Virus record (IMG/VR): IMGVR_UViG_3300045988_027240
Span: 1-41,304 of that record
Length of the DNA: 41,304 nucleotides
Source: a virus
Reading direction: 5' to 3' (one strand)
Part shown: in pieces, positions 5,683 to 38,961 of the stretch
How positions within the stretch are numbered: position 1 is the first letter of the stretch
Layout: each line of letters starts with the position of its first letter
Program-made: the position numbers and the translations under genes
The notes under the pieces: model-generated
Database searches by the model: none
What the model saw: only the letters and a program-made list of their open reading frames with translations
Told to the model about the DNA's origin: nothing

Positions 5683-5889
5683 TCAAACTTCTCCCCTGGG
5701 CACCCATACGACCTGATACTTGGACCGCCCGGGGCGTTTTGCTCGTTTCCTGCGGCTGATGGAAGAGGTAACCGTCCCAACGGTGACGCCCGCCATCCGG
5801 GCCAACTCCTCCATGGAATCCGCCACTGCCAGCGGCAGCTCGTACTTATCCGACGTGACCCACAGATACAGGGGCTTGCAGGGATTCAT
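5683..5889 (-). CDS. small phage protein, probable DNA-binding
   Basis: 68 aa, ATGA-coupled to the helicase-methylase stop. YELPLAVADSMEELARMAGVT is HTH-like, and a basic tail follows. Confidence 0.45.
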   Translation of the reverse strand: MNPCKPLYLWVTSDKYELPLAVADSMEELARMAGVTVGTVTSSISRRKRAKRPGRSKYQVVWVPRGEV

Positions 5890-8387
5890 AGGCCACCTCC
5901 CACCAGATCAAACAGGGAAATGTTCCTGTCCTCTTCCTCGTACTCCTTCAGATACCCCACGGCATCCCGGAAATAGCCGTCGTTCAGCTCGATGGTGTAC
6001 CCCCGCCGCCCGGCCTTCATGGCTTCCAGGGCAACGGTGCCCAGGCCGCCGAAGGGGTCCAGCACCAGGTCTCCGGGGTTGCTGTACCGATTGATGAGCC
6101 TGTCCACGATGTCCAGCTGCAGGGGGCAGACGTGCATCTGCTGGCGGCGCTGGCTCTGGGTGGTGTTGAGCGTTTTCATCCGGTTGATATCGTCCCAGAC
6201 CTCATCTGTCCAGCTTCCGGGCGCCACCACCATGAAGGTGGCGGGGAGTTTTCCGTCCTCGTCCAGCTCCTTCGCCATCCGGACGTGCTCGGCGTAGTCG
6301 TACACCGTCCCCCGGCTCAAGCGCCGGTAGGCCGCCTGGATCTTCCCGGTGTCCATGGCCATGATCTCCTCTTTGGTGAGGAGCCGATCTCCGGAAGAGC
6401 GCCAGAAGCCGTGGGCGTCGATCTGCCACTGTGCCCGGGTGTAGTCCTCCTTGGATTTCGCCACCGGCTCGTCGGCATAGGCCTTGGACCGGTCCGTGGG
6501 CAGCTTACGGAAAAGCAGGATGTACTCCGGGCATCCGACGCCCATCTTGGAACCGTCCTTGCACTGCTCCGTCCACCCCAGGCGATAGGTCTGGTTGTTC
6601 TCCCGCACCACGTCCGTGACCACGGTTATCATGCCGAAGTAGGCGAAGCCGTGGGCCATGTAATGGCGGATGCACATGGCGTGAAAGGGCTCCATGGTGG
6701 GCATCCCCATCCCCGTGGCGTTGCCGAAGAGGACCCGGTCCTTCACGTGGCAGCAAAACACACGCCCCGGCTTCAGCACCCGCAGCAGATTCGGGCTGAG
6801 GTAGTCCATCTGCTCGAAGAAGCGCCGGGTGTCCTCGTTGTGCCCGAAATCGTTGTAGCTGGGGGTGTACTCGTAATGATTGGAGAATGGGATGGAGGTC
6901 ACAATGAGATCCACGCTGTTTTCCGCCATGCGGGCGGTCTCCTCCACGCAATCGTTGTTGACTGCCGTAAAGTTCTTTCCCTTCACTTCCACTCTCTCAA
7001 CTCCAATGCTCCGGCTCATGCGCTCGGTCTGCGCCGCACCGCTGAGCCCGTATTTCTGGACGATATCCCGCATCCGCTCCTGCATGGCGTTGTGCTGTTT
7101 CCACTTTTCCAGCAGCACCCGGTAGATGGGGTCCTCCGCCTCCATGTAGATGATGTCGATGACCACCGGCTCAGACTGCAGGAAGCGGTATATCCGGTGG
7201 ATGGCCTGAATGAAATCATTGAATTCGTAGTCGATGCCGACGAAGATGGCCCGGTGGCAGTGCCGCTGGAAGTTGCAGCCGGAGCCGGAGAGGCTTTTCT
7301 TCGTGGCGAAGAGCCGGGTCCGTCCTTCGGAGAAGTCGATGACCCGCCGCTCCCGCTCCGCATAGTCCATGCTGCCGTAGATGTCCACGGCCCCCGGCAG
7401 TGCCCGGAGCAGAGCGTGGCGCTCCGCCTCCAGGTCATGCCAGAGGAGGAAGTGGGCCTCCGGGTCACTCTCCACAATCTCCCGGGCCACGGCCACCCTG
7501 GCCTCGATGCTCTCCCGCTTCTCCCGGCTGGCCTCCGCCAGGGAGACCGCAGCGTCATTGGTGAGCTTGTACTGCCCGTCCCGGTCCACTTCCTTGCCGT
7601 AGTCATCCCGGACAACGTGGGTCCGGACCTCCAGCGGCGGCAGGTCATAGCCGGTATCGTCATAGCCCAGGTCGGAGGGCCGCCCGATGAAGAGCGCCCA
7701 GGAAGAGACCCATAGCCAGAACTCATCCTCCTTGTGGGGATAGAGGGTCAGGTTGTTGGCCTTGGTGCTGTCCCGCTGGAAAAATCGGGTCAACGCCTGT
7801 CCGGTGTCCATGATCTCCAGGTATCCGGCGTAGTGGATGAGCTCCTTATACCGGTTGGGGGACGGCGTGGCCGTGGAGACCAGCTTATACTTCACGCCCC
7901 GGAACTTGGGGAGGAACGTCTGGTAGGTCTTGCTCCCGAAGCTCCGCAGCACGGACGCCTCGTCCAGAGCCACGGCCGTAAAGCAGGTCGGGTCGATGTC
8001 CCCGTCCCGCACCCGCTCATAGTTGGTCATCACGATCTCGGCATCTGTCCCGGCCAGGTCCTCCATAGAGGTGATGTAGACCGGGGCGGGATAGCCAAGG
8101 ATCTCCCGGGCGTCTCTGGCGAACTCCTGCCGCACGCCCAGGGGGAGCACGATCAGGGCCCTCCCGCCATCGTGCCGCACGGCCTGATGGCAGAACTCGA
8201 TCTCCTGCACGGTCTTCCCCAGGCCGAAGGATTCAAAGAGCGCCCGGCGTCCGCCCCGCAGAGCCCAGACCACAGCGTCCCGCTGGTGGGGTTTCAACCC
8301 CGGATTGACCTCCCCAGGGTCCAGCTCAAATCCGCTCTCCTTCGCCAGAACGATCTTCGAGCGGAGAAATTCAAGATAGGTTTCCAT
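5886..8387 (-). CDS. SNF2-family helicase fused to a beta-class N6A/N4C DNA methyltransferase
   Basis: Helicase motifs GLGKT, DEAS and QAIHRIYR. Methylase motif IV-like DLIVTSIPF and motif I DPFGGLGT. ATG 8387 has an AAGGAGG SD. Confidence 0.85.
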   Translation of the reverse strand: METYLEFLRSKIVLAKESGFELDPGEVNPGLKPHQRDAVVWALRGGRRALFESFGLGKTVQEIEFCHQAVRHDGGRALIVLPLGVRQEFARDAREILGYPAPVYITSMEDLAGTDAEIVMTNYERVRDGDIDPTCFTAVALDEASVLRSFGSKTYQTFLPKFRGVKYKLVSTATPSPNRYKELIHYAGYLEIMDTGQALTRFFQRDSTKANNLTLYPHKEDEFWLWVSSWALFIGRPSDLGYDDTGYDLPPLEVRTHVVRDDYGKEVDRDGQYKLTNDAAVSLAEASREKRESIEARVAVAREIVESDPEAHFLLWHDLEAERHALLRALPGAVDIYGSMDYAERERRVIDFSEGRTRLFATKKSLSGSGCNFQRHCHRAIFVGIDYEFNDFIQAIHRIYRFLQSEPVVIDIIYMEAEDPIYRVLLEKWKQHNAMQERMRDIVQKYGLSGAAQTERMSRSIGVERVEVKGKNFTAVNNDCVEETARMAENSVDLIVTSIPFSNHYEYTPSYNDFGHNEDTRRFFEQMDYLSPNLLRVLKPGRVFCCHVKDRVLFGNATGMGMPTMEPFHAMCIRHYMAHGFAYFGMITVVTDVVRENNQTYRLGWTEQCKDGSKMGVGCPEYILLFRKLPTDRSKAYADEPVAKSKEDYTRAQWQIDAHGFWRSSGDRLLTKEEIMAMDTGKIQAAYRRLSRGTVYDYAEHVRMAKELDEDGKLPATFMVVAPGSWTDEVWDDINRMKTLNTTQSQRRQQMHVCPLQLDIVDRLINRYSNPGDLVLDPFGGLGTVALEAMKAGRRGYTIELNDGYFRDAVGYLKEYEEEDRNISLFDLVGGGL

Positions 8388-8398
8388 GGGGTCCTCCT

Positions 8399-9223
8399 TC
8401 ACCCGTCGTAACAGCCACACGGAGCACCGCAGAGACAACCACCAGGGCTATCAGGAAATAATTCATCAAAAGTGATCTGTGCATCCTCGAAAGCCTTGTT
8501 CTCCATGAACTCCTTGTAGTAACTCTCCCAGGACCAGTTACGGCCAAGCCCTTTGACATTCACATTGGTTGCTGCGGCCCCGTGCTCAATCGCTACTGCA
8601 CGCTGGAACAAATCCGGGTAGTTCTCCCATAGTGCCTGTATTTCCTTCTTTTTCATGGATGGGCAGAAGAAGCACGAACTTTTCCCTGGCCTCGGAAGCC
8701 CGGCCCGCTCAATCACACGCACACACTCCTCACGGGTCCAGCCCCATTCATAGAGAGGGTAACGATTTTCGTATTTTTTGTTTGCCTCGTCCGCCGGGGC
8801 GGCGTGCTGGATGCGACGGGTCTCCCCAGCATCGTACCCGATGAACTTATGGACGCGCTGGCCACTGGCCCACGCATCCTTGCACGGCTGATAGTTATTG
8901 CAGAACTTTTCCTGCGTCCCTATCTTGTGCTTGAGGGAGCAACGTTTGAAACCGTATGCAATGGATGGCAGTGTTCCGCTGTTGATGCACTCCTGCTCCA
9001 ACGTCAGGCGGTTTCCATCCTTATCGTGGTACTGCACGGAGGTGATTTTCGGAAGCCCGTGCTGTTCCAGCCAGCCATTGAAGGTCTCGATAAACGCATA
9101 GGTGTGCGGCTGCTCCCCTCCGGTATCAGCGAACAGAATCAGGTCTATCGGGATCTTGCGCAGGTACATCCCGATAATCATGGCGGTGCTGTTGGTCCCA
9201 CCGCCGAAAGAAACAATGTTCAT
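8399..9223 (-). CDS. PAPS-reductase-like PP-loop ATP pyrophosphatase
   Basis: PP-loop SFGGGTNS near the N-terminus, plus ADTGGEQPHTY. C-terminal Cys clusters CFFCP and CLCGAPCGC. Internal ATG 9223 was chosen because the upstream track extension is Gly/Pro noise. Confidence 0.75.
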   Translation of the reverse strand: MNIVSFGGGTNSTAMIIGMYLRKIPIDLILFADTGGEQPHTYAFIETFNGWLEQHGLPKITSVQYHDKDGNRLTLEQECINSGTLPSIAYGFKRCSLKHKIGTQEKFCNNYQPCKDAWASGQRVHKFIGYDAGETRRIQHAAPADEANKKYENRYPLYEWGWTREECVRVIERAGLPRPGKSSCFFCPSMKKKEIQALWENYPDLFQRAVAIEHGAAATNVNVKGLGRNWSWESYYKEFMENKAFEDAQITFDELFPDSPGGCLCGAPCGCYDG

Positions 9224-10393: not shown

Positions 10394-11317
10394 ATGTCAG
10401 ACGATTTTAAAATTCCGTTTTTTAAGTCGCAAAGAAACAGTCTGGCGTTGCATTTATTTTTGGATGCAGACAGGGCCAAAGAAAAAGCAAACAAAGCCAG
10501 GACAATTTCAGAATTTATAGAAAATTACGACATAATACTCGACCGGTTCAAAAAATTATCTTTAATGAACGGAAAAGTAACAAGCGTAAAGGGCGATTTG
10601 CAGATAGAGTTCTGGCGGCTTGAAACTGAATTCCAAAAACATTTCTATGACGCAATAGAACGAAGTGGAGATCAAATCATAAAAAACCGCAAGGGCTTGT
10701 ACAAATACGATGACGAATATATTAGGCGTAGCATTAAACAATTTGGAATCGATATAAAGAAATATTTTTCCCGCGGAGACGCCAAAACGCAAGAATTTGC
10801 AAAAGCTAAATACCGTTATGTCTGCCACGAATGCGGAATGCTAGATTTAATCAATGAAACTCAACATCGGCGGGAAAATTCCGATTTAGACATAGAAGCA
10901 ATTATAAAAGAAGAAGAAAATTGGAGGAGGCAGCAGCAAGGCATTGCAGCCCCCGAGGATGAATTAAATAAAGTGGACTTAATGAATGGCCCTGACTTTG
11001 AACATTGGTGCGCCAAAATTCTTGGAAAAAATGGATTTGAAAAAGTCGCAGTAACGCCGGAAAGCGGAGATCAAGGAGTAGATGTTTTAGCGGAAAAAGA
11101 TGGCATTAAATATGCTATCCAATGCAAATGCTATTCTTCCGATTTGGGGAATACGCCAATCCAAGAGGTAAACGCAGGAAAAGCCATTTATCGTTGCCAT
11201 ATCGGAGTTGTTATGACAAATCGCTTTTTCACATCAGGCGCAAAGGAAGCGGCTGAAGCTACTGGCGTTTTACTTTGGGACAGAAACAAGCTTAAAGAGC
11301 TAATTAACAGTATTTAA
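10394..11317 (+). CDS. Mrr_cat (PD-(D/E)xK restriction-endonuclease-like) domain protein with unknown ~190-aa N-terminal domain
   Basis: C-terminal GPDFEHWCAKILGKNGFEKV…SGDQGVDVLAEKDG…YAIQCKCY…FTSGAKEAA matches the Mrr catalytic domain pattern. Clearly AT-richer than the rest of the genome. Confidence 0.75.
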   Translation: MSDDFKIPFFKSQRNSLALHLFLDADRAKEKANKARTISEFIENYDIILDRFKKLSLMNGKVTSVKGDLQIEFWRLETEFQKHFYDAIERSGDQIIKNRKGLYKYDDEYIRRSIKQFGIDIKKYFSRGDAKTQEFAKAKYRYVCHECGMLDLINETQHRRENSDLDIEAIIKEEENWRRQQQGIAAPEDELNKVDLMNGPDFEHWCAKILGKNGFEKVAVTPESGDQGVDVLAEKDGIKYAIQCKCYSSDLGNTPIQEVNAGKAIYRCHIGVVMTNRFFTSGAKEAAEATGVLLWDRNKLKELINSI

Positions 11318-12470: not shown

Positions 12471-13022
12471 ATGTCAGCGATCCAGGAGCTTGCACCGTAT
12501 ATCGAGGATTACCCACATCGGGTGAGAGCCGCAAAGGAGGAAAAGCACTACACCATCAGCGATATCATCGAGCGCTCCGGCGTCTCGGCATCGGCTGTCA
12601 ACAAGCTGCTGGCGGGAACGCAGATGGAGCCAAAGCTCTACAACTCGGCGGCCCTCTGCAAGGTCCTGGGCCTCTCCATGGACGAGCTCTTCGGCCTCGT
12701 TGCCCCGGAGGGCAGCGACCGGCAGGCCAGAGAGGAGATGCACCAGCTCCAGCTGGAGAATGTCCGCCTGGAGGCGGAGAATCGCATGGGGGCGGAGCGG
12801 GTGGACGCCCAGCGCCCGGTGATCCTGGCCCTGCTGGTCCTCTGCACCGCTCTCTGCGCGGCGCTGGCCGGCTACATCGCCATTGACGCCCAGATCAGCA
12901 ACGCCGGTCTGATCCGGGGCGGAGACCCCACCGTTGTGGCATGGGGCATCATCGTCCTGCTGGTCCTGGCCGTCGCCGTCGTCGCCTGGGCCATGGTCCG
13001 CGCCATCCGGCGCGGGAAATAA
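12471..13022 (+). CDS. membrane-anchored XRE-family HTH regulator
   Basis: TGGAGG SD before ATG 12471. HTH YTISDIIERSGVSASAVNKLLAG, then a coiled coil (QLQLENVRLEAENR), then two hydrophobic helices (VILALLVLCTALCAALAGYI and WGIIVLLVLAVAVVAWAMV). Confidence 0.7.
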   Translation: MSAIQELAPYIEDYPHRVRAAKEEKHYTISDIIERSGVSASAVNKLLAGTQMEPKLYNSAALCKVLGLSMDELFGLVAPEGSDRQAREEMHQLQLENVRLEAENRMGAERVDAQRPVILALLVLCTALCAALAGYIAIDAQISNAGLIRGGDPTVVAWGIIVLLVLAVAVVAWAMVRAIRRGK

Positions 13023-13024
13023 CC

Positions 13025-14104
13025 ATGGAGACCTGCATCAGATGTCGCGCGGAGCTGCCGCCTGGGGCGCTCTATTGCCCCGCCTGCGGGAAAAAGCAGG
13101 TGCCGGAAAAGCGCAAGGCCCTCAAGCGGGCCAACGGCACCGGCACGGTCTACCGCCTGCAGGGCAGGCGGAAGCGCCCCTGGGTGGCGGCAAAAAACCG
13201 GGTAGTCATCGGCTACTACGCCAAGAAAACGGAGGCCCTAGAGGCTCTGGAGCGCCTCTCCGGCGTCGATATCTCCGAGCGCTACAATATGACTTTTTCT
13301 CAAGTTTTCGACGCCTGGAAGCAGGAGCACTACCAGGAGATCGGCCCGCACGGCATCGAATCCTATGAGCAGGCGTACAAAGTCTTTGCTCCGCTGCACG
13401 GTCGCAAATTCCGCGAGCTGCGCACGGCAGACTTCCAGACCGTCCTGGATGCCCACATGGGCAAGTCTCACTCCACCGTCTCAAAGTATAAGCAGCTCAT
13501 CACGCAGATGTCCGCCTGGGCCATGCGCGAGGAGCTCGTCACCACAAATTTCGCCAGATTCGCCAAGTTGCCAGAGCAAAAAAAGACGGAAAAAGAGGTG
13601 TTTTCCGCCTCCGACATCGCTAAGCTGCAGGCGGACGATAGCGAGGCCGCCAGGATCGTGCTGATGCTGATCTACACCGGCATGCGCATCGGCGAGCTCT
13701 TCTCTCTGCCCCGCAGCGCTTATTATGGCACCTACGTCATCGGCGGCGAGAAGACCGAGGCCGGGCGCAACCGGATTATCCCTATCTGGCCGGAGGGCCG
13801 GGAACACTTTGCCTACTTCGCCTACTTCTCCTCGCCGGGCGGCCTGCTGCTGGAGAGCTACAAGGGGCACCGGACAACCAACAACTACCGCAAGCGAGAC
13901 TACTACCCGCTGCTGGAGCGCCTGGGCATTGCCCGGAAAACGCCCCACGCTACCCGCCACACCTACGCCAGCATGGCGGTGACTGCGGATATCCGGCCGG
14001 AGCTCCTGCAAAAGATGCTTGGCCATGCAAACTACGCCACGACGGCCAACATCTACCAGCACTTCGACCCGCAGGAGCTGGTCCGGGCCGTAGAGAATCG
14101 CTAG
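13025..14104 (+). CDS. int: tyrosine recombinase (phage integrase) with N-terminal zinc ribbon
   Basis: CIRCRAEL…CPACG ribbon. Catalytic signatures TGMRIGELFSL (R), HATRHTYAS (HxxR) and LGHANYATTANIYQH (Y). Reads toward attP. Confidence 0.9.
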   Translation: METCIRCRAELPPGALYCPACGKKQVPEKRKALKRANGTGTVYRLQGRRKRPWVAAKNRVVIGYYAKKTEALEALERLSGVDISERYNMTFSQVFDAWKQEHYQEIGPHGIESYEQAYKVFAPLHGRKFRELRTADFQTVLDAHMGKSHSTVSKYKQLITQMSAWAMREELVTTNFARFAKLPEQKKTEKEVFSASDIAKLQADDSEAARIVLMLIYTGMRIGELFSLPRSAYYGTYVIGGEKTEAGRNRIIPIWPEGREHFAYFAYFSSPGGLLLESYKGHRTTNNYRKRDYYPLLERLGIARKTPHATRHTYASMAVTADIRPELLQKMLGHANYATTANIYQHFDPQELVRAVENR

Positions 14105-18641: not shown

Positions 18642-19655
18642 TTAGCCCGTCCAGTCGGCGCGGGCCTCGCGGACGTCGATGTGAGTAAAGCCCTGCTTGA
18701 CGTAGACGCCCACGCCGCCCCAGTCGGGCATGATCTCCCGGGCGTAGGCGGCCACCTGGGCCGGGGTCTTGCCACGGACCACGATGTCCGCCGCCGTGCC
18801 GTAGCAGTGCTGAGAACGGGCTACGCCGCCGACCTTGGCGTTGTACTGCGGTGTCCGGTAGGCGCTGTGGATGGTCACCGGGGCCCCGAAGTGGCTCCGG
18901 ATGCTCTGCAGCACCATCACCAGCCGGGGCGCCACCAGGACAGCGTCGGAGCCATCCGTGCACGCGAACTCGCTCACCTTGAAGTTGGTGGACAGCTTTT
19001 TGGAGCCGTCCTGGGCCTTGCTGTATGCGTTGATCTCTACCATAGGCTTGCCTCCCTCCGGCTCGTTATCGTTGAGGTATACCAGGATGTAGTGCTGTAC
19101 TCTCCGGGAGCTTGTAATCCGCTGGCCCTGGAAGTCGCATTGGCTGCTGCCGCCGCTGTCCAGCATCACGGCGCTGGTCCAGCCTGCCCGGGCCAGGTCG
19201 TCCCGCAGGGCCTCCGGCGTCCGGGCGGCAGCGGAGCCGTCCCGGGAGCAGTAGAGAGCCAGCCGGTCGCCCTTGATGCCGATGGCGCTCCGCCCCCGCT
19301 TGCCGCCCTGGCCGGGATCGTAGGTGAGCTTGCTCAGGGCCTTACCGCTGACGATCAGGGGAGTGCAGGCGATGTAATTGCGGGCGCTGTCCGGCAGCGC
19401 GTCCATGCAAATGTCCGGCCCTTGGTCCCAGGCGTAGCCCGCCACGGTGTAGGCGGGAGACGCCAGGACCTTGCCGTCCGCCTTGAGGTGGCAGTTGACG
19501 GCCAGGGTGCGCATGTTGTATAGGGTACCGTTGAGGCCGTAGTCCGCCCCCGTCTCCCGCATGATCTGGGTGAGGGTCCGCCGCCGGGTGTTGACGTACA
19601 CCTGGATGCGGGCAATCCGGGAGAGCGGCACGGTGACGGCGCAGGGGTTACTCAT
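18642..19655 (-). CDS. endolysin: N-terminal phosphodiester-glycosidase (NAGPA/DUF2233-like) domain plus C-terminal peptidase M15A domain
   Basis: N-terminal …RSAIGIKGDRLALYCSRDG…VMLDSGGSSQ. C-terminal FKVSEFAC…SAYRTPQYN…SQHCYGTAADIVV…FTHIDVR (zinc ligands H, D, H). Overlaps the holin stop. Confidence 0.85.
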   Translation of the reverse strand: MSNPCAVTVPLSRIARIQVYVNTRRRTLTQIMRETGADYGLNGTLYNMRTLAVNCHLKADGKVLASPAYTVAGYAWDQGPDICMDALPDSARNYIACTPLIVSGKALSKLTYDPGQGGKRGRSAIGIKGDRLALYCSRDGSAAARTPEALRDDLARAGWTSAVMLDSGGSSQCDFQGQRITSSRRVQHYILVYLNDNEPEGGKPMVEINAYSKAQDGSKKLSTNFKVSEFACTDGSDAVLVAPRLVMVLQSIRSHFGAPVTIHSAYRTPQYNAKVGGVARSQHCYGTAADIVVRGKTPAQVAAYAREIMPDWGGVGVYVKQGFTHIDVREARADWTG

Positions 19656-32435: not shown

Positions 32436-33434
32436 TCAGGCGGAAGTCTTGGGCTTCAGCACGATGCCGTTCAGGGCGGCGGCCTTCAGGGTGTTCTTCA
32501 GGACTACGCCAGCGACCAGCTCAACCTCGCCCTTCTTCACGGCGCCAGGCTCGCTCATGTTGGGCATGTAGGAGTTGATGACGCCGGTACCAGCGGGAGA
32601 AATGCCGTGGAAGCCGTCCAAACCGATGCTCACAGCGTAGATGCTGGAGGTGCCGGCGGCGGTGGTGCTGGGGGTGGAGGTGCCGATGACATCCACGGAG
32701 TTGCTGCCGTTGTAGTACTTGCCGCAGTCCATCAGGGGGATACCGGCGAAGGTCTCCACGACCCGGCCGAAATCGTCCTTGGTGCGCTCATAGTAGCCAG
32801 CCCGGCGGGCGGCGGCACGGACCTTCAGCAGCATGTCGCTGTTCATCAGCAGCATGGTGGTGTCGCCGTCGATGGCGTGCACCAGCTGGTCCAGCTGGTC
32901 AATGAAGGCGTTGGCGTTGCTCCCGACCTTGGCAGAATCGGAGAGGTCGATGTCGGTGGTGAACTCATTGGAGGTGCCGTCCAGAAGCTTCCGTAAGCCG
33001 TCGAAGGTACCGGTCACGTAACCGGCGCCAGTGGAAGCGGCGATGCCGTTGATGACGAGGTTGTGGAAGTAGTTGCTGGTGGCCTTGACCTTCTGGGACA
33101 GCTGGAAGGCCAGCTCATCCACAGCGCCGGAGGTGTTCTGGAGCACACGGTCCACTTGGAAGGAACCGCCCATGATGACAGCCTTGGCGGTCTTCTCCAC
33201 CCGCTTGGCCTCACCGGCGGAATACTCGCTGTTGATGGCACGAACAGCGGCGGTGGAGGGGGTCTTGAGCTGGATGTAGCCGTAGGTCAGGGTAGACCCG
33301 CCGGTACCGGGAGAAATGGCGTTGTCGAACACCAGCCGGTCCAGCAGAAGAGAGCTCCGGCGGAACTCATCGACGATCATCTGGTCGACCTTATCGGCCA
33401 TACCGACCTTGGCTTCAGCGAGAGTAATAGGCAT
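32436..33434 (-). CDS. major capsid protein
   Basis: 332 aa following the scaffold gene. N-terminal MPITLAEAKVGMADKVDQMIVDEF… is typical of this capsid family. Confidence 0.85.
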   Translation of the reverse strand: MPITLAEAKVGMADKVDQMIVDEFRRSSLLLDRLVFDNAISPGTGGSTLTYGYIQLKTPSTAAVRAINSEYSAGEAKRVEKTAKAVIMGGSFQVDRVLQNTSGAVDELAFQLSQKVKATSNYFHNLVINGIAASTGAGYVTGTFDGLRKLLDGTSNEFTTDIDLSDSAKVGSNANAFIDQLDQLVHAIDGDTTMLLMNSDMLLKVRAAARRAGYYERTKDDFGRVVETFAGIPLMDCGKYYNGSNSVDVIGTSTPSTTAAGTSSIYAVSIGLDGFHGISPAGTGVINSYMPNMSEPGAVKKGEVELVAGVVLKNTLKAAALNGIVLKPKTSA

Positions 33435-33447
33435 AATTCAGTCTCCT

Positions 33448-34002
33448 TTACTTATCGTATTTTTCGTGGAGCGCCGCAGAAAGGGAAATGGGCGCATCCG
33501 GTTTGCCGGGAATGGGATTCTTGCCGGGGCCCGGAGCGTAAGGCGCCGGGGGATCCGTCTCGAAGAGGTAGCCGTTCTCCTTCTGGAGAGTTTCCAGGGC
33601 CGCCTTGATGTCGGTATCCTGGTTGCTGGACTTTCGCAGGGCGTCCATGTCCAGCAGGGCGGAGATGGCCTTGGCGCTGCGGCCCTTGGCAGCGGTGATG
33701 GCGTCCTTGAGTTTGCCCTCAAACGCCATACCGTCCAGTTTCTCCTGCCACTCCTTGTCCTTGCTGGTGAGCTGCCCTTGGAGTTCCTTGATCTTCGCCT
33801 GAAGCTGGGATGCGTCCACCCTTTCAAATGCCTTCAGAGCCTTCTTGGCCTCATCCAGCTGCTCCTTGATGGACTGGTAGTCCACAAAGGGCTTTTTTGC
33901 CGCTTCGATGTCACGGCCATTCTCGGCGAGGATTTCGTCGATGATCTCCTTGGGGAGGGCCTGGTCGCCCACCTTGAAATTCTGCAGAAATTCGGTTTTC
34001 AT
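33448..34002 (-). CDS. scaffolding protein
   Basis: 184 aa, highly charged coiled coil. Sits between the MuF module and the capsid gene. Confidence 0.8.
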   Translation of the reverse strand: MKTEFLQNFKVGDQALPKEIIDEILAENGRDIEAAKKPFVDYQSIKEQLDEAKKALKAFERVDASQLQAKIKELQGQLTSKDKEWQEKLDGMAFEGKLKDAITAAKGRSAKAISALLDMDALRKSSNQDTDIKAALETLQKENGYLFETDPPAPYAPGPGKNPIPGKPDAPISLSAALHEKYDK

Positions 34003-34090
34003 GGTTTCTCCTCTTTCGGCTAGGCGTTTTAGGAGGTCGCCAGCTCCTGCCGTTCCGTCCTTTTAGGCCCACGGATAGGCCAAATGGGTA

Positions 34091-34116
34091 TGAAAAAAGC
34101 AGCCCTTCGGCTGCTT
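34091..34116 (-). terminator. rho-independent terminator inside the late operon
   Basis: Minus strand: AAGCAGCC-GAAG-GGCTGCTT followed by TTTTTT. Lies just after the hidden small ORF. Confidence 0.7.
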
Positions 34117-34137
34117 CAATCATTGAGTTGTACTGGG

Positions 34138-34299
34138 TCAATCTGTCACACGTTCGATATCGCCATGCTTCACAAATTCGGTAGAAGTGCTCCCGTCCTG
34201 GTGATCTACATCCGCAAGATAGGCTACGCCATCTTCCAGCACATCGACGATACAAGCAGATTCTCCCGAAGTCAGCACAACGTGAGTATATGGCTTCAC
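34138..34299 (-). CDS. 53-aa DUF4926-like protein (candidate immunity/antitoxin partner); not in the ORF track
   Basis: GTG 34299 overlaps the MuF TGA (GTGA), 6 nt after GAGGAG. Translation: VKPYTHVVLTSGESACIVDVLEDGVAYLADVDHQDGSTSTEFVKHGDIERVTD. Confidence 0.6.
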   Translation of the reverse strand: MKPYTHVVLTSGESACIVDVLEDGVAYLADVDHQDGSTSTEFVKHGDIERVTD

Positions 34300-35813
34300 T
34301 TCCCTCTCCTCTTTTCCTTATCCACATAGGCACTCACAAGGCGCATTTCCTTCGTCTTGTTGTCATCAATCCATGCCGTAATGATCTTTGCCGTCCTCGA
34401 ATTGCGCCCTTCGATCTCCATACGGACCTCATACCGCATTCCGTACCCATTGTCGCCCTTTTGCTTTGCGGGAAACCGGCCCAATCCTTCGCGTATACGC
34501 CCAATCAGATCATCCACGCTGTCAACATCATACCCCAGCGCAGACGAAAAGGCAACTGCCTTATCTGGGGCCTTCCGGGGATTCAACGCGTATTCAGTAA
34601 ACTTTTCTGTAGGTATCTGCGCTGCCTTTCGTTTGGGAAGAAGAGTCTTCTCAAGTGCTTTCTCCGCCGCACCAACCTGCTTCCATCCGAACTTGGCAAC
34701 CTCCGCCCGCTCTAACTGGGTCCGCAGGCCAGCGGCCTTGGAGAATCGGGAGTATTCCTGCCGGAGGATCTGGAGCTTAATCTGGTCCGTTTGCAACTTT
34801 TCCGCATCCCCGGCGGCTTCGTCCACCAGGATGCGCCGCTTTTGCCGCCGGATGGAGGCTTCCAGTCGCCGCTGCCGCTGGGTGGCTTCGTAGCCGGTAT
34901 AGTGCTTACCCTGGTAGGTAACGCCCTCCTCGTTCTTCTGGCGCATCCGCTCCAGCTCTTCCGGGCTATACTGTGGGATACTCACGCCCAGGATGATGGG
35001 ATGGGCGGAATGGCCGCAGTTGAGCGTCCCGATGCGCCGCACAAGGCTGCTGTTCAGCGCTTGATACTCGGCGTCCGGGTACTGCCGCCCCTGGATGGGC
35101 TCATGGTCCGGGGCGCTGTTGTTGTGGGCGTCGATCTCCCAGCCGTCAGCGCCCAGGTCATCGTGGGTCCTCTGGGATATCTGCTCCTGCATCAGTCCAA
35201 GACCGCCCATGACGTTGCGCCGGACGGCGGCTTCCAGGCTCGTATGCACGCCGGATTCATAATCGATCCAGCGCACGCCCCGGTCCGCCAGGTTTTTGGT
35301 GGCCTGCCGGATGGCGGTATTGTAGTCCGCCGCTCCGATAGAAACCTGCATGAAAGCGAAGTCCATACAGCTCCGGTAGGCATCCCTCAGCGGGAGCGCC
35401 CGGCCGTAGGGGTCCACCATGCCGATGGTCTGGGTGATGTTGCTCAGGTCGTTCTCCGCCAGCCGCACGGCCGCCGCCACGATCTGCTGGACCGCCTCGT
35501 TCTGCTGGAACGGGATGGCCTGCACCTGCGGCAGACTCCGAAGGTCATAGCTGTAGCCCGCCTCGGCGCTCTGGGTCAGCATCTTCCGGAGTTCCCGGTT
35601 GGAGACCTTCAACAGTTTTTTGAGCCGCTTCTTGATCTCCCGCTGGGAGAGACCAAGCTCCTGGAGCTTCCAGGTCTCATACTGTGCCGTGGCCGTAAAC
35701 TGCCCAGCCTTGGCCACTCGCTTGGCAAGGTCCTGAATCAGATAGTCCACGATGGGAGCCGTCAGCTCCTCGGCGGTGCCCCGCAGGGCGTCTATCTCGT
35801 CTGCCCGGAGCAT
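34296..35813 (-). CDS. head morphogenesis protein (SPP1 gp7 / MuF family) with DUF6883-like C-terminal extension
   Basis: 505 aa after the portal gene. MuF-like core. The last ~106 aa (…EKFTEYALNPRKAPDKAVAFSSALGY…YGMRYEV…ITAWIDD…RLVSAY) match my memory of DUF6883. Confidence 0.8.
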   Translation of the reverse strand: MLRADEIDALRGTAEELTAPIVDYLIQDLAKRVAKAGQFTATAQYETWKLQELGLSQREIKKRLKKLLKVSNRELRKMLTQSAEAGYSYDLRSLPQVQAIPFQQNEAVQQIVAAAVRLAENDLSNITQTIGMVDPYGRALPLRDAYRSCMDFAFMQVSIGAADYNTAIRQATKNLADRGVRWIDYESGVHTSLEAAVRRNVMGGLGLMQEQISQRTHDDLGADGWEIDAHNNSAPDHEPIQGRQYPDAEYQALNSSLVRRIGTLNCGHSAHPIILGVSIPQYSPEELERMRQKNEEGVTYQGKHYTGYEATQRQRRLEASIRRQKRRILVDEAAGDAEKLQTDQIKLQILRQEYSRFSKAAGLRTQLERAEVAKFGWKQVGAAEKALEKTLLPKRKAAQIPTEKFTEYALNPRKAPDKAVAFSSALGYDVDSVDDLIGRIREGLGRFPAKQKGDNGYGMRYEVRMEIEGRNSRTAKIITAWIDDNKTKEMRLVSAYVDKEKRRGK

Positions 35814-37183
35814 TACTCATCTACCGGGGCGTCCTGCTCCGGCATATAGCGCTTCCGGATATACGCCAGGTCCGCTTCCGTCTCTCTCGGGAGGTCAAAA
35901 TACCATCCAAGGGCAATCTCCGTTTTCAGCATACCAGCGGCCGCCATGGACTTGTACTCCTCCCAGGTCTTGTCCTCGTCGTAGAGAACGCCGTTGCCCC
36001 AAGAAATGGTGATGTCCTTCTCCTGGTCAATGGTACTCCCGGAGAATACCTTGTAGAGCCGCCCTAGGATCTCGCAGACCCGGACCGCCTCACGGGCGGC
36101 GCTCTCCCACATGCGCTGGAAGCCGATAATGGTGAGGTTATAACTGCCAGCACTGTCGGTGATTTGCGTTGCCGTTTTCTGCACGGTTTCAACGTTGGAA
36201 AGGAGGCCACGCTTCAAGCCCATCAGGCTTTCCGCACTGCGGAGGGAATCCATCTTTTTATCCAAGAAGCTCTGAACACGAAGCTCAGGAGAATAGACGG
36301 TAACTCCCACGGTCTCAGGGTCATCATCCAGCCCAACAAAGAGGTCATCGGACAGGCGCTTCCGCCCATCCGCTCCGGTTTTGAGAAGGTCCGCCGAGGC
36401 GAATACCCGGCTGCGGCCATTCTCAAGCTCCCGATCAAGCTGGGCCTCATTGCGATTGAGATTGTGGATAAGCCCAGCCGCCGAGGCAAAGATGCTGACG
36501 GCATCCGGGCTCCCGTCTACCGTGTTCTCCTGGGGGCACCGAACAGGGATAAGGCCGATGGAGCCGACCCCAGGGAGCACCAGCTCCGGCACAAGGCCAG
36601 CGTACTTCTCCAGGGTATCAAGCGGCACCTGCACGCCAAGGGTCTGCCCATCGCCGCTTAAATACAGCTTACTCTCGATGACCAGATTCCCAGTGGCATC
36701 TACCCGGCGGCGTTCCAGGAGGGTGTAGCTGTTGCGCCCCTCCACGGTACGCTCCGCCGTTCCGATGTCCGTGATCTCATCTCGCTCATTTCTCCCCAGC
36801 GGCAGATAACTGCCCCGGGGGATAACGGAAAACGCCAGGCCGGTTGTCCCGAAGACGGGTTTCAGGAAACTCTGCCCGCCAATGAGCGCCTGTTGCACAG
36901 CCTTACCCTTTACCCGGCCAAGCTCCAGCAGGATGCGCTTTGCGTCTTCATTATCGCTATCAGCCTGATATTCAGAGAAGACCGCACGGGTAATTGTCGA
37001 TACCACCAGCACCGGAATTCTCTGGCAAGGGTCCTCTTCCGTAGTTGCTTCCGCCTGATAGTAGAGCTGCGCCCAGTCCCGAATAGCGGCCTGCATCTCA
37101 GCGGTGGTGATGTCCTTCACGCCGAAAGCCTGCTGGAAGTTATAAATTTTTCCCTGGTCAAACAGGGCGGAAAAGATGCTCAC
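35813..37183 (-). CDS. portal protein (SPP1 gp6-like)
   Basis: About 456 aa after terL. GTG 37183 lies 9 nt after AAGGAGG and is GTGA-coupled. The track start is TTG 37204. Confidence 0.9.
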   Translation of the reverse strand: MSIFSALFDQGKIYNFQQAFGVKDITTAEMQAAIRDWAQLYYQAEATTEEDPCQRIPVLVVSTITRAVFSEYQADSDNEDAKRILLELGRVKGKAVQQALIGGQSFLKPVFGTTGLAFSVIPRGSYLPLGRNERDEITDIGTAERTVEGRNSYTLLERRRVDATGNLVIESKLYLSGDGQTLGVQVPLDTLEKYAGLVPELVLPGVGSIGLIPVRCPQENTVDGSPDAVSIFASAAGLIHNLNRNEAQLDRELENGRSRVFASADLLKTGADGRKRLSDDLFVGLDDDPETVGVTVYSPELRVQSFLDKKMDSLRSAESLMGLKRGLLSNVETVQKTATQITDSAGSYNLTIIGFQRMWESAAREAVRVCEILGRLYKVFSGSTIDQEKDITISWGNGVLYDEDKTWEEYKSMAAAGMLKTEIALGWYFDLPRETEADLAYIRKRYMPEQDAPVDE

Positions 37184-37389
37184 GGGCTGGACACCTCCTT
37201 GCAATGGATAACGATGCGCCCTTGACGGCGCTGGTTATCGTGGATTCCCTGGATATACGCCTCCAGGCGGTCAATCTCTTGCTCTTTGCACGCTAGGCGC
37301 TCCCGGAGCCTCCGGTTCTCCTCCAAGAGCTCATCCCGGCACCAGGCGGGGAGGAAGCGCTCAATAAGCCATCGTTTCAGCTTTCTCAC
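37180..37389 (-). CDS. small coiled-coil protein between terL and portal
   Basis: 69 aa. GTG start is GTGA-coupled to the terL stop. LEENRRLRERLACKEQEIDRLEAYI. Confidence 0.5.
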   Translation of the reverse strand: MRKLKRWLIERFLPAWCRDELLEENRRLRERLACKEQEIDRLEAYIQGIHDNQRRQGRIVIHCKEVSSP

Positions 37390-38624
37390 TTGCCCCTCCT
37401 CTTCCAGATGCGGTTCGTGCCATAGCGCACGGCGTCGATATGGTGGTTTGCGACATCGGGATATCCCTCCATAACCTCGTTGGTCTTTGGGTCCCGCTCA
37501 TACTCATACTCGGTGAACTCTCTGGCCGTGTCCGGGCAGCGGCCCGGGTCAATGACAATGGCCGTCAGGGATTGCAGCCACTTCATGGAATACGCTACAC
37601 TGCCGGGGCCCTTTTCGGACGCCCGGCAGTTGAGCCCGAAGGCCTTATAGTCGCTGACGGATTTCTCCTCGGCGCTGTCCGCAATGACGAGCTCATCCTG
37701 CGGGATGAGCTCCATCAGCAGGGCGGCGGTGTCCTGGTTGCTGGTGCGGTGCCGGGTCAGCTCGGAGAACAGGTAGAGCGTCCGCCTTGCGGCATCGTAG
37801 TGCATCCGGTTCCACGCCCAGGGGTCAGGGTACCAGCCCCAGTCCACGCCGTTTGTAATGCGGTCGAACTGCGAAATTTCCTCGTCCGAGATGTCCCGGA
37901 GCTGCAGATTCTCAAAGACCTGCGTCCCGCTACCCACGACCTCTCCCAGATATTCGTGCCGGTAGGCGGTGGGATTGGTAGCTTGCAGATGCTCGGCATC
38001 CGCCAGGAAGCGAGGCCCCAGCCATTCCGGTGGGGTAGTCAGGTAAGTGCTGTGATGCACCAGCTTCCCTGGCTTCTCCTCCAGAGCATAGCGGTTGGCC
38101 CAGTTCCGGGCCATCGCGGGAGGGTTGAAGGATTTAAAGGTCATGCTGAACGAGCCGCCTCGCAATGTGGACTGCTCCACGTTGCGGATTTGTTCCGGCC
38201 CGTCAAACTGGTCCAGCTCCTCGAACCAGTCCACGCCGATATAGCCGAACGGAACTTTGATGGACTTTACCTTGCCAGGATCGTCCATTCCGAAGAACAT
38301 GATCTTCTGCCCGGTGGGGATGTAGACACATTCCATCGGGCTTACCGTGCAGCGGAATTTCCTGGTCAGCCCCAGCTGCGCAATCGCCCATACGATCTGA
38401 GCGTAAACCGTAGTTCGAAGGGTGTTGCCGTACTTGCGGAAGACACAGGCGTGAATCTGCGGGTTCTTCAGGATCAGCAGCACCAGTTCCACAGATATCC
38501 AAGAAGATTTCGTGGAGGCTCTGCCGCCCTTTGATACGACCTCGCTGACCTCATGGGCTTTGACAGCCTTGTGCGGCTCCACAAAAGCCGGGGAGATGAT
38601 GTCGGAAAGCCTACAGGTCGTCAA
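37386..38624 (-). CDS. terL: terminase large subunit (PBSX/XtmB family)
   Basis: SKGGRASTKSS (deviant Walker A), GVDWFEELDQF, and nuclease motif GVDWGWYPDPWA. TTG 38624 (9 nt after GGGAGGGG) aligns with XtmB-type N-termini. The start is uncertain. Confidence 0.85.
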   Translation of the reverse strand: MTTCRLSDIISPAFVEPHKAVKAHEVSEVVSKGGRASTKSSWISVELVLLILKNPQIHACVFRKYGNTLRTTVYAQIVWAIAQLGLTRKFRCTVSPMECVYIPTGQKIMFFGMDDPGKVKSIKVPFGYIGVDWFEELDQFDGPEQIRNVEQSTLRGGSFSMTFKSFNPPAMARNWANRYALEEKPGKLVHHSTYLTTPPEWLGPRFLADAEHLQATNPTAYRHEYLGEVVGSGTQVFENLQLRDISDEEISQFDRITNGVDWGWYPDPWAWNRMHYDAARRTLYLFSELTRHRTSNQDTAALLMELIPQDELVIADSAEEKSVSDYKAFGLNCRASEKGPGSVAYSMKWLQSLTAIVIDPGRCPDTAREFTEYEYERDPKTNEVMEGYPDVANHHIDAVRYGTNRIWKRRGK

Positions 38625-38961
38625 TGATCCGCACCCCTCCCTGGTCCTCTCCGGCGACATCACCAAGCAGATCGACAATGATTTTGGCCGCCTTAGCATC
38701 GCCCAGAGTTGCCGCCTCGGTTAGTCCGATAATCATTGCCATTTGATTGTCCACGTCCTCCGGGTCCACGCCCTTGCGGGCTATCTTGTTCCACCTTCGC
38801 CGGTCGGAAACCGGCAGAGAGAGGTACAGGTCCGCCGCTTCCCGGAGGCTGCGCTTGCGGCGGCGTGCCGCACCGGAGGCGATGCCGCCCGCTGTCCGTA
38901 TTGCTTTCTGCTCGGCCTCTGTTCGCCGGTCGAACGGGATAAGATTCTTCTCACCGGACAC
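38611..38961 (-). CDS. terS: terminase small subunit
   Basis: …GEKNLIPFDRRTEAEQKAIRTAGGIASGAARRRKRS… is typical of terS. GTG 38961 follows GAGAGAGGTGGG. The upstream 150 nt of the track ORF looks like a structured leader. Confidence 0.7.
   Translation of the reverse strand: MSGEKNLIPFDRRTEAEQKAIRTAGGIASGAARRRKRSLREAADLYLSLPVSDRRRWNKIARKGVDPEDVDNQMAMIIGLTEAATLGDAKAAKIIVDLLGDVAGEDQGGVRIIDDL

Follow-up and report, generated by a model that had tools for sequence, protein, structure and literature searches.

The 41,304-nucleotide stretch of viral DNA analysed in this study, referred to as the window, comprises positions 1 to 41,304 of the IMG/VR virus record IMGVR_UViG_3300045988_027240. The locus of interest is located on the minus strand and consists of a gene for a minor head protein, whose C-terminal domain is a predicted toxin, and a very small downstream gene, whose product is a predicted immunity protein. 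The head gene (34296..35813, minus strand) is an open reading frame (ORF) of 505 amino acids (aa) that was assigned to the MuF2 family of minor capsid or head-morphogenesis genes. In the Pfam search, Phage_min_cap2 (PF06152) spans aa 8-357 of the deduced protein, covering the profile positions 7-364 of 366 with an E-value of 7.7e-70, and the PHROGs assignment of the protein is PHROG 581, minor head protein. Within the MuF superfamily, PF06152 represents the branch MuF2 and PF04233 the branch MuF1 (Jamet et al. 2017, PMC5576092). The original prediction for this locus had described the product as a MuF-family head protein, of which the affiliation with the MuF superfamily and the role as minor head protein were upheld, but the N-terminal domain is Phage_min_cap2 (MuF2) and not Phage_Mu_F itself.

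The last 106 or so amino acids of the protein had been likened to DUF6883, and this assignment was confirmed by Pfam. With the whole protein as query, DUF6883 (PF21814) was detected on aa 392-498 with 57.9 bits, compared with a gathering score of 27, and the isolated C-terminus of 114 aa scored 61.7 bits to the same family (E 9e-17). According to the PF21814 match and a structural model, the region 34320..34640 (minus strand) was annotated as a DUF6883 / BECR-Tox3 domain, a predicted ribonuclease (RNase) toxin with the BECR (barnase/EndoU/colicin/RelE) fold. The AlphaFold2 model of this domain was built with 15 homologues, reached a mean predicted local distance difference test value (pLDDT) of 90.5 and displays a topology in which three helices precede an antiparallel sheet of four strands. 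A Foldseek comparison with the PDB yielded four chains of entry 6CP9 as the top four matches, with query TM-scores (TMq) of 0.61-0.65, a probability of 1.00 and E-values of 4.0e-3 to 7.9e-3, and weaker matches included HigB, HigB2, ParE-type toxins and other toxins of toxin-antitoxin systems. The entry 6CP9 contains CdiA-CT from Klebsiella pneumoniae 342 (Kp342), a toxin and BECR-fold tRNA-cleaving ribonuclease (tRNase) for which the active-site residues K157, Y160, H170, R252 and T255 have been listed (PMC9086364). The C-terminal domain is hence modelled with the alpha+beta fold of the BECR type, at moderate statistical support.

A comparison of 38 distinct DUF6883 domains revealed the conserved polar residues K404, Y408, K418, K452, Y461, N471, T474, T479, W481, D484 and R491, and each of K404, Y408, T479 and R491 is kept in at least 34 of these domains. 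In the model, the first helix carries K404 and Y408, which are separated by one turn; strand 3 carries T479 and W481, and R491 belongs to strand 4. Additionally, the same domain was found in a viral structure library in three phage proteins from gut metagenomes, two of them labelled as minor capsid protein and one as zinc-binding metallopeptidase. Neither PADLOC nor NCBIfam gave a match for the MuF protein or for the small ORF.

The predicted immunity gene (34138..34299, minus strand) specifies 53 aa that are modelled as a DUF4926-like beta-barrel of the SH3/Tudor/KOW type. Its GTG start codon (34299-34297) overlaps the TGA stop codon of the MuF gene (34298-34296) in the sequence GTGA, and a Shine-Dalgarno-like GAGGAG (34306..34311, minus strand) was read from the sequence at a spacing of 6 nucleotides (nt) from the GTG. 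The original prediction had given this start, overlap and spacing correctly, but its description of the small ORF as hidden does not apply, since the gene has already been called in three public assemblies that carry an identical 505-aa protein.

The 53-aa product has many distant relatives. A word-indexed search with the single sequence matched only two near-identical predicted proteins, a full HMMER scan with the same sequence against 1.84 billion representatives detected 21 relatives at E <= 1e-3, and the profile generated from those relatives recovered at least 572 clusters at 90% identity. No Pfam annotation was present on any of the 120 best small-family relatives listed; when 22 members of the family were compared with Pfam, seven touched DUF4926 at E <= 0.01 (best value 3.3e-5), and no other Pfam family was touched by any of them at this cut-off. 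The AlphaFold2 model of the 53-aa protein is a five-stranded barrel with a pLDDT of 96.5. A Foldseek search with this model returned SH3/Tudor/KOW-type barrels only, none of them at E <= 0.001, and a profile search of the PDB sequences with the immunity family gave nothing meaningful. No Pfam DNA-binding domain was found in the 53-aa protein, and the model consists of the barrel only.

Pairing with DUF6883 and exchange of the cassette

The association of the two families was analyzed in 30 genome loci that were fetched by a DUF6883 peptide motif alone and in which all ORFs were then scored with both family profiles. Small-family members in the orientation of DUF6883 were present in 29 of the 30 loci, with start positions of -16 to +19 nt relative to the DUF6883 stop codon, and no copy of the small family was detected on the opposite strand. 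The exception is locus L043 from a metagenome-assembled genome (MAG) of the Hyphomicrobiaceae, which contains a canonical DUF4926 gene (81.5 bits) in the same downstream position. DUF6883 forms the C-terminus of a larger protein in 25 collected loci, and all 25 proteins match the Pfam family. The carriers include Phage_Mu_F in nine cases, Phage_min_cap2 in six, DUF7211 in three, and VG15 and DUF5662 in two each. Moreover, DUF6883 and the small gene also occur as stand-alone genes (99-130 aa) in neighbourhoods without phage character. The small gene is accordingly in near-obligate synteny with DUF6883, whatever the carrier.

Two further arrangements were noted among the members of both families. 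The pair at L006:2732-4168, on a MAG contig of 146 kb, is composed of a Phage_Mu_F-DUF6883 protein of 419 aa and a partner of 55 aa; its neighbours are an IS110 fragment, a gene for a 3109-aa protein and nonribosomal peptide synthetase / radical S-adenosylmethionine genes, and a head module is not visible. Possibly, this pair is a remnant that was left stranded or a MuF toxin that has become domesticated. The small-family member P0120 (59 aa) is located 8 nt after a gyrA gene of normal length (815 aa) on four metagenomic contigs (L010:4001-4180, L011:2632-2811, L012:743-922 and L013:736-915) with no DUF6883 gene nearby; the immunity-like gene is thus an orphan in the neighbourhood of a housekeeping gene. 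The protein P0032 (931 aa), which was matched in six stretches and considered as a poly-immunity protein, turned out to be a Calx-beta repeat protein and was discarded as a false positive.

A search of viral contigs with the N-terminal 378 aa of the MuF2 protein resulted in 12 loci, including sister phages in which the carrier is conserved and the C-terminus is exchanged. In L050, L051 and L057 the N-terminal 378 aa are 96-97% identical, whereas the C-terminal domains are unrelated and gave no Pfam or NCBIfam match. The proteins of L052, L053, L058 and L060 end in Ntox50 (PF15542), with scores of up to 104 bits. Each alternative C-terminal domain is accompanied by its own unrelated small ORF of 62-74 aa overall, with 65-74 aa after the Ntox50 proteins and 62-66 aa after the proteins of L050, L051 and L057.

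The borders of the exchanged region are defined within a few bases. The conserved part of the MuF2 carrier (aa 1 to about 385; 34657..35813, minus strand) shows 89-94% DNA identity with the sister phages. The blastn homology to L050, L051 and L057 ends at 34657-34661 on the portal side and resumes at 34131-34132, which is six bases past the stop codon of the small ORF and just before a hairpin. The G+C content is 0.49-0.53 across the intervening segment versus 0.60-0.65 in the flanking head genes, and this dip would fit a recent origin of the segment from a donor with lower G+C content. The sharp homology breakpoints along with the G+C dip are the signature of an exchangeable toxin-immunity cassette of 524 bp (34133..34656, minus strand), which includes aa 386 (approximately) to 505 of the MuF2 protein and the 53-aa ORF, and which has almost the extent that the original prediction had delimited.

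Within a single gut metagenome (IMG 3300045988), near-identical head modules contain at least four mutually exclusive toxin/immunity cassettes, and two of the toxin domains and all of the small partner proteins are without significant Pfam match. The two respective pairs comprise a C-terminal domain without Pfam or NCBIfam match and a small ORF, namely L051:3590-4012 with L051:3990-4178 (and the corresponding pair of L057) and L050:3638-4147 with L050:4154-4354 (and that of L059). The 62-66 aa ORFs following the L050- and L051-type domains likewise gave no significant Pfam match, and these combinations, which occupy the site of the cassette, are candidates for toxin/immunity pairs not yet described.

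Flanking features and genome context

A GC-rich hairpin with a U run that resembles an intrinsic terminator is located at 34091..34117 (minus strand), with the stem at 34096-34117 and the U run extending to 34091. The minimum free energy of the hairpin is -20.1 kcal/mol with a z-score of -3.9, and none of 200 shuffled sequences folds as well. It is not among the terminators listed by the consensus scan; the earlier classification as a strong terminator is thus supported by the folding analysis but not by the scan. The hairpin lies outside the cassette, in the stretch starting at 34131-34132 in which the homology to L050, L051 and L057 has resumed.

A sigma-70-like site, TTGCCT-17-TATGAT, was found at 34527-34555 (minus strand) within the coding sequence of the toxin, where it precedes the small ORF by about 230 nt, and L002 contains TTGCGT-17-TATAAT at the same place. 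The site could drive expression of the immunity gene alone in lysogens, which is taken as a lead and not as evidence. The number of promoter-like sites in the region is not above the expectation from shuffled sequences, and the conservation in L002 coincides with the conserved codons of LGY[D/N]. An ORF of 140 aa (33911..34333, minus strand) overlaps the small ORF in a different reading frame and also covers the hairpin and the first part of the scaffold gene. Sister phages keep just the part of this ORF that is external to the cassette, in the form of different ORFs of 70-76 aa. Because it is out of frame with the 53-aa gene and persists only partially in the sister phages, the 140-aa ORF is probably spurious, in agreement with the original prediction.

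The cassette is embedded in a head module with the same-strand gene order large terminase, portal, MuF2, small ORF, scaffold, major capsid and head-tail adaptor. The portal gene (PHROG 533; 35813-37204, minus strand) is located directly upstream of the MuF2 gene, whose first base, 35813, is the final base of the portal stop codon, and the large terminase gene (37386-38699, minus strand) lies upstream of the portal gene. Downstream of the 53-aa ORF, the scaffold gene (33448-34002, minus strand) is followed by the gene for the major capsid protein (32436-33434, minus strand). The protein scan of the window additionally identified a tyrosine integrase with zinc ribbon (Phage_integrase family; 12941-14104, plus strand), indicating a temperate phage or prophage, as well as an M15 peptidase lysin (18642-19655, minus strand). 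The window also encodes a protein of 850 aa (5886-8438, minus strand) that contains a domain of the N6/N4 DNA methylase type and matches an SNF2-related family more weakly and below the threshold, and a protein with an Mrr-type restriction endonuclease domain (10394-11317, plus strand).

A C-terminal domain of 98% identity was found on an IMG/VR viral contig of 40 kb. Searches of 50,697 GenBank phage records by megablast with the 7.2-kb head module and by tblastn with the C-terminal domain yielded no match, leaving no cultured relative from which annotation could be transferred. Genomic relatives of the DUF6883 domain are mostly encoded in MAGs of Lachnospiraceae and Oscillospiraceae, none of which contains the same phage. 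The locus belongs to a temperate phage of the siphovirus type, the host of which is probably found among the gut Clostridia.

Predicted toxin and immunity functions

The architecture of the head protein, the folds predicted for both products, the near-obligate synteny, the exchange of cassettes and the temperate-phage context lead to an explanation that we consider likely, namely that the locus encodes a MuF-family polymorphic toxin composed of a MuF2 carrier, a DUF6883 RNase toxin of the BECR type and a cognate immunity protein of 53 aa. The original prediction had proposed a toxin/immunity-type pair of the MuF polymorphic class, and this proposal is supported by the fold, the synteny and the cassette swap. 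By analogy with SPP1 gp7 and Mu gpF (established knowledge reviewed in PMC5512222 and PMC5576092), the MuF2 part would be incorporated into the procapsid via the portal and would exit the capsid with the DNA. The DUF6883 domain would thereby reach the cell infected next and would most likely cleave tRNA or another RNA there, and such cleavage could contribute to host takeover or damage cells devoid of immunity. The translationally coupled 53-aa protein would most likely bind and block the toxin in the producing cell and in lysogens.

Several observations weigh against this explanation. The 38 distinct DUF6883 domains contain no conserved histidine, so that catalysis would have to depend on lysine, tyrosine, arginine and threonine, and a catalytic set of these residues is a reasonable inference from the model. 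The profile search gave no sequence-level PDB match for the toxin family, leaving the fold comparison as the only informative one, and the Foldseek E-values to 6CP9 cited above are modest, at a sequence identity of 10-11%. The MuF protein of Mu bears an inactive PBECR domain, and the BECR domains of MuF proteins are accordingly not always toxic (PMC5512222). The literature searched yielded no experiment or biochemistry on any DUF6883 protein, and we infer packaging, ejection and the binding of toxin and immunity protein.

The assignment of the small protein is also affected. The original prediction had recognised a DUF4926 pattern in it and had suggested a Pfam search with both sequences; in this search, DUF6883 exceeded its threshold as reported above, whereas the 53-aa product reached 12.9 bits to DUF4926 (PF16277; E 0.075), below the gathering score of 29.1. 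The consensus of the small family reached 16.3 bits to the same model. An hhalign comparison of the small-family profile with the DUF4926 protein of L043 was collinear over 39 columns, with an E-value of 2e-3 and a probability of 13.5%. What stands of the earlier claim is the predicted SH3-like barrel and the position beside DUF6883. Since the threshold was failed, the 53-aa protein can be called DUF4926-like only, and the small family (about 55 aa) is a positional equivalent of DUF4926 but a non-member by the Pfam criterion.

Among the other explanations, the one that survives best, although we regard it as improbable, is a toxin-antitoxin module for addiction or abortive infection that acts in the producing cell, for example in prophage stabilisation or in the shutdown of translation late in infection, with the MuF fusion being incidental and without delivery by the virion. 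The stand-alone DUF6883 genes with their small partners in ordinary chromosomal neighbourhoods (a pair near HicAB in L005 and pairs between metabolic genes in L007 and L008) speak for such a module, whereas in 25 collected loci the domain ends a larger protein, mostly a virion-associated carrier (nine Phage_Mu_F and six Phage_min_cap2 proteins), and is swapped on the same carrier with Ntox50, a polymorphic-toxin domain. The arrangement is similar to that of type II modules in which the toxin gene comes first, such as HigBA, and HigB, HigB2 and other toxins of toxin-antitoxin systems are among the weak structural matches, but the small protein is a bare beta-barrel without the recognisable DNA-binding module that is typical of type II antitoxins, and PADLOC gave no match.

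The cassette-wise swap for other toxin domains, each with its own small ORF, would be hard to explain if DUF6883 were here an inert appendage for nucleic-acid binding or assembly and the 53-aa protein a chaperone or partner in head assembly, and the fact that DUF6883 is strictly paired with its small gene outside phages too also speaks against this possibility. This possibility appears slightly less probable again than a toxin-antitoxin module. It would agree with the missing conserved histidine, with the inactive BECR domain in the MuF protein of Mu (PMC5512222) and with the absence of toxicity data for DUF6883, but not with the strong conservation of the polar residues K404, Y408, T479, W481 and R491, whose types match the K/Y/H/R/T active sites of the CdiA-CT toxins of Kp342 and EC3006 (PMC9086364).

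That the 53-aa ORF is an untranslated chance ORF, as its short length, its GTG start and the lack of a significant Pfam match of its own might suggest, is effectively refuted by its conservation in at least 572 homologous clusters and in the same position at 29 of 30 independent loci, and it is furthermore opposed by the model with a pLDDT of 96.5, the gene calls of other pipelines, the Shine-Dalgarno sequence at the right spacing and the overlapping stop and start codons.

Relation to described systems and biological meaning

The interpretation as a MuF-family polymorphic toxin places the locus in a class that was defined for temperate phages by Jamet et al. 2017 (PMC5576092) and of which the Apk2 MuF toxins are experimentally studied examples (PMC12226406). 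The locus shares with this class the N-terminal domain of the MuF superfamily, the gene position directly after the portal gene, the variable C-terminal toxin domain, the small ORF (<150 aa) immediately downstream and the occurrence in a temperate phage of gut Firmicutes. The Apk2 MuF toxin differs by its (p)ppApp synthetase at the C-terminus, whereas a BECR RNase of the DUF6883 family is predicted here.

The closest description of the pair is a preprint of August 2026, in which DUF6883 was named BECR-Tox3 and assigned to the colicin-like BECR RNases, and in which a conserved downstream DUF4926 gene and MuF fusions of DUF6883 were reported on computational grounds (bioRxiv 10.64898/2026.08.28.747851). 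In both cases the same Pfam domain is fused C-terminally to a MuF-type protein and followed by a small conserved gene. However, the carrier in the preprint is Phage_Mu_F and the carrier here is Phage_min_cap2, and the downstream protein described here escapes the Pfam DUF4926 model (12.9-16.3 versus 29.1 bits). The downstream protein in this clade, which is associated with Clostridia, may be regarded as a member of a divergent and unannotated sister family of DUF4926. The original prediction had regarded the pair as functionally uncharacterised, which is true for experiments, as no experimental test of DUF6883 or DUF4926 is reported in the literature searched, but not for the computational association published in this preprint.

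The CdiA-CT/CdiI system of Kp342 (6CP9) resembles the locus by the C-terminal position of the toxin in a polymorphic delivery protein and by the immunity gene immediately downstream, and the K, Y, R and T residues of its active site appear from the model to have counterparts of the same type among the conserved DUF6883 residues. The two systems differ in the route of delivery, which is type V secretion for CdiA and would be the phage capsid here, and in the immunity protein, as CdiI is a larger alpha/beta protein and the partner of DUF6883 a barrel of 53 aa. Moreover, the CdiA-CT toxin of Kp342 uses a histidine and requires EF-Tu, EF-Ts and GTP (PMC9086364), whereas DUF6883 is without a conserved histidine.

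Phage-borne BECR RNase domains on head proteins have also been described as PBECR domains on MuF and portal proteins, and for MuF-BECR fusions both packaging and injection have been predicted (Iyer et al. 2017, PMC5512222). [quoted passage not shown]

Both the MuF toxin class and the pairing of DUF6883 with DUF4926 and MuF are thus already known, and the locus is a clear but ordinary example that does not change a concept. The new aspects are the MuF2 carrier, the exact boundaries of the cassette along with its alternative alleles in sister phages, the structural match that points to a tRNase of the Kp342 type and the partner family that escapes the Pfam DUF4926 model. The recognition that this small partner family, with at least 572 clusters, is missed by that model is useful for annotation.

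MuF toxins are abundant in phages of human-gut Firmicutes, and the experiments concern the Apk2 type only. The locus provides a clean case, with boundaries known within a few bases, sister phages with alternative cassettes, a confident model and a partner of 53 aa, and it raises the testable questions whether the toxin is injected with the DNA, which RNA is cut and whether lysogens are immune to the virions of their kin. Beyond the assignment as a MuF polymorphic toxin, we tentatively suggest a more specific and rather unlikely reading, according to which the locus is one allele of a phage-borne kin-discrimination system with a histidine-free BECR tRNase that is blocked by the 53-aa barrel. 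If this were true, the DUF6883 tRNase would use a Lys-Tyr-Arg-Thr site like that of the Kp342 CdiA-CT toxin, the 53-aa beta-barrel would be among the smallest immunity proteins known, and the injected toxins along with the immunity expressed by lysogens would decide which lysogens survive which phage.

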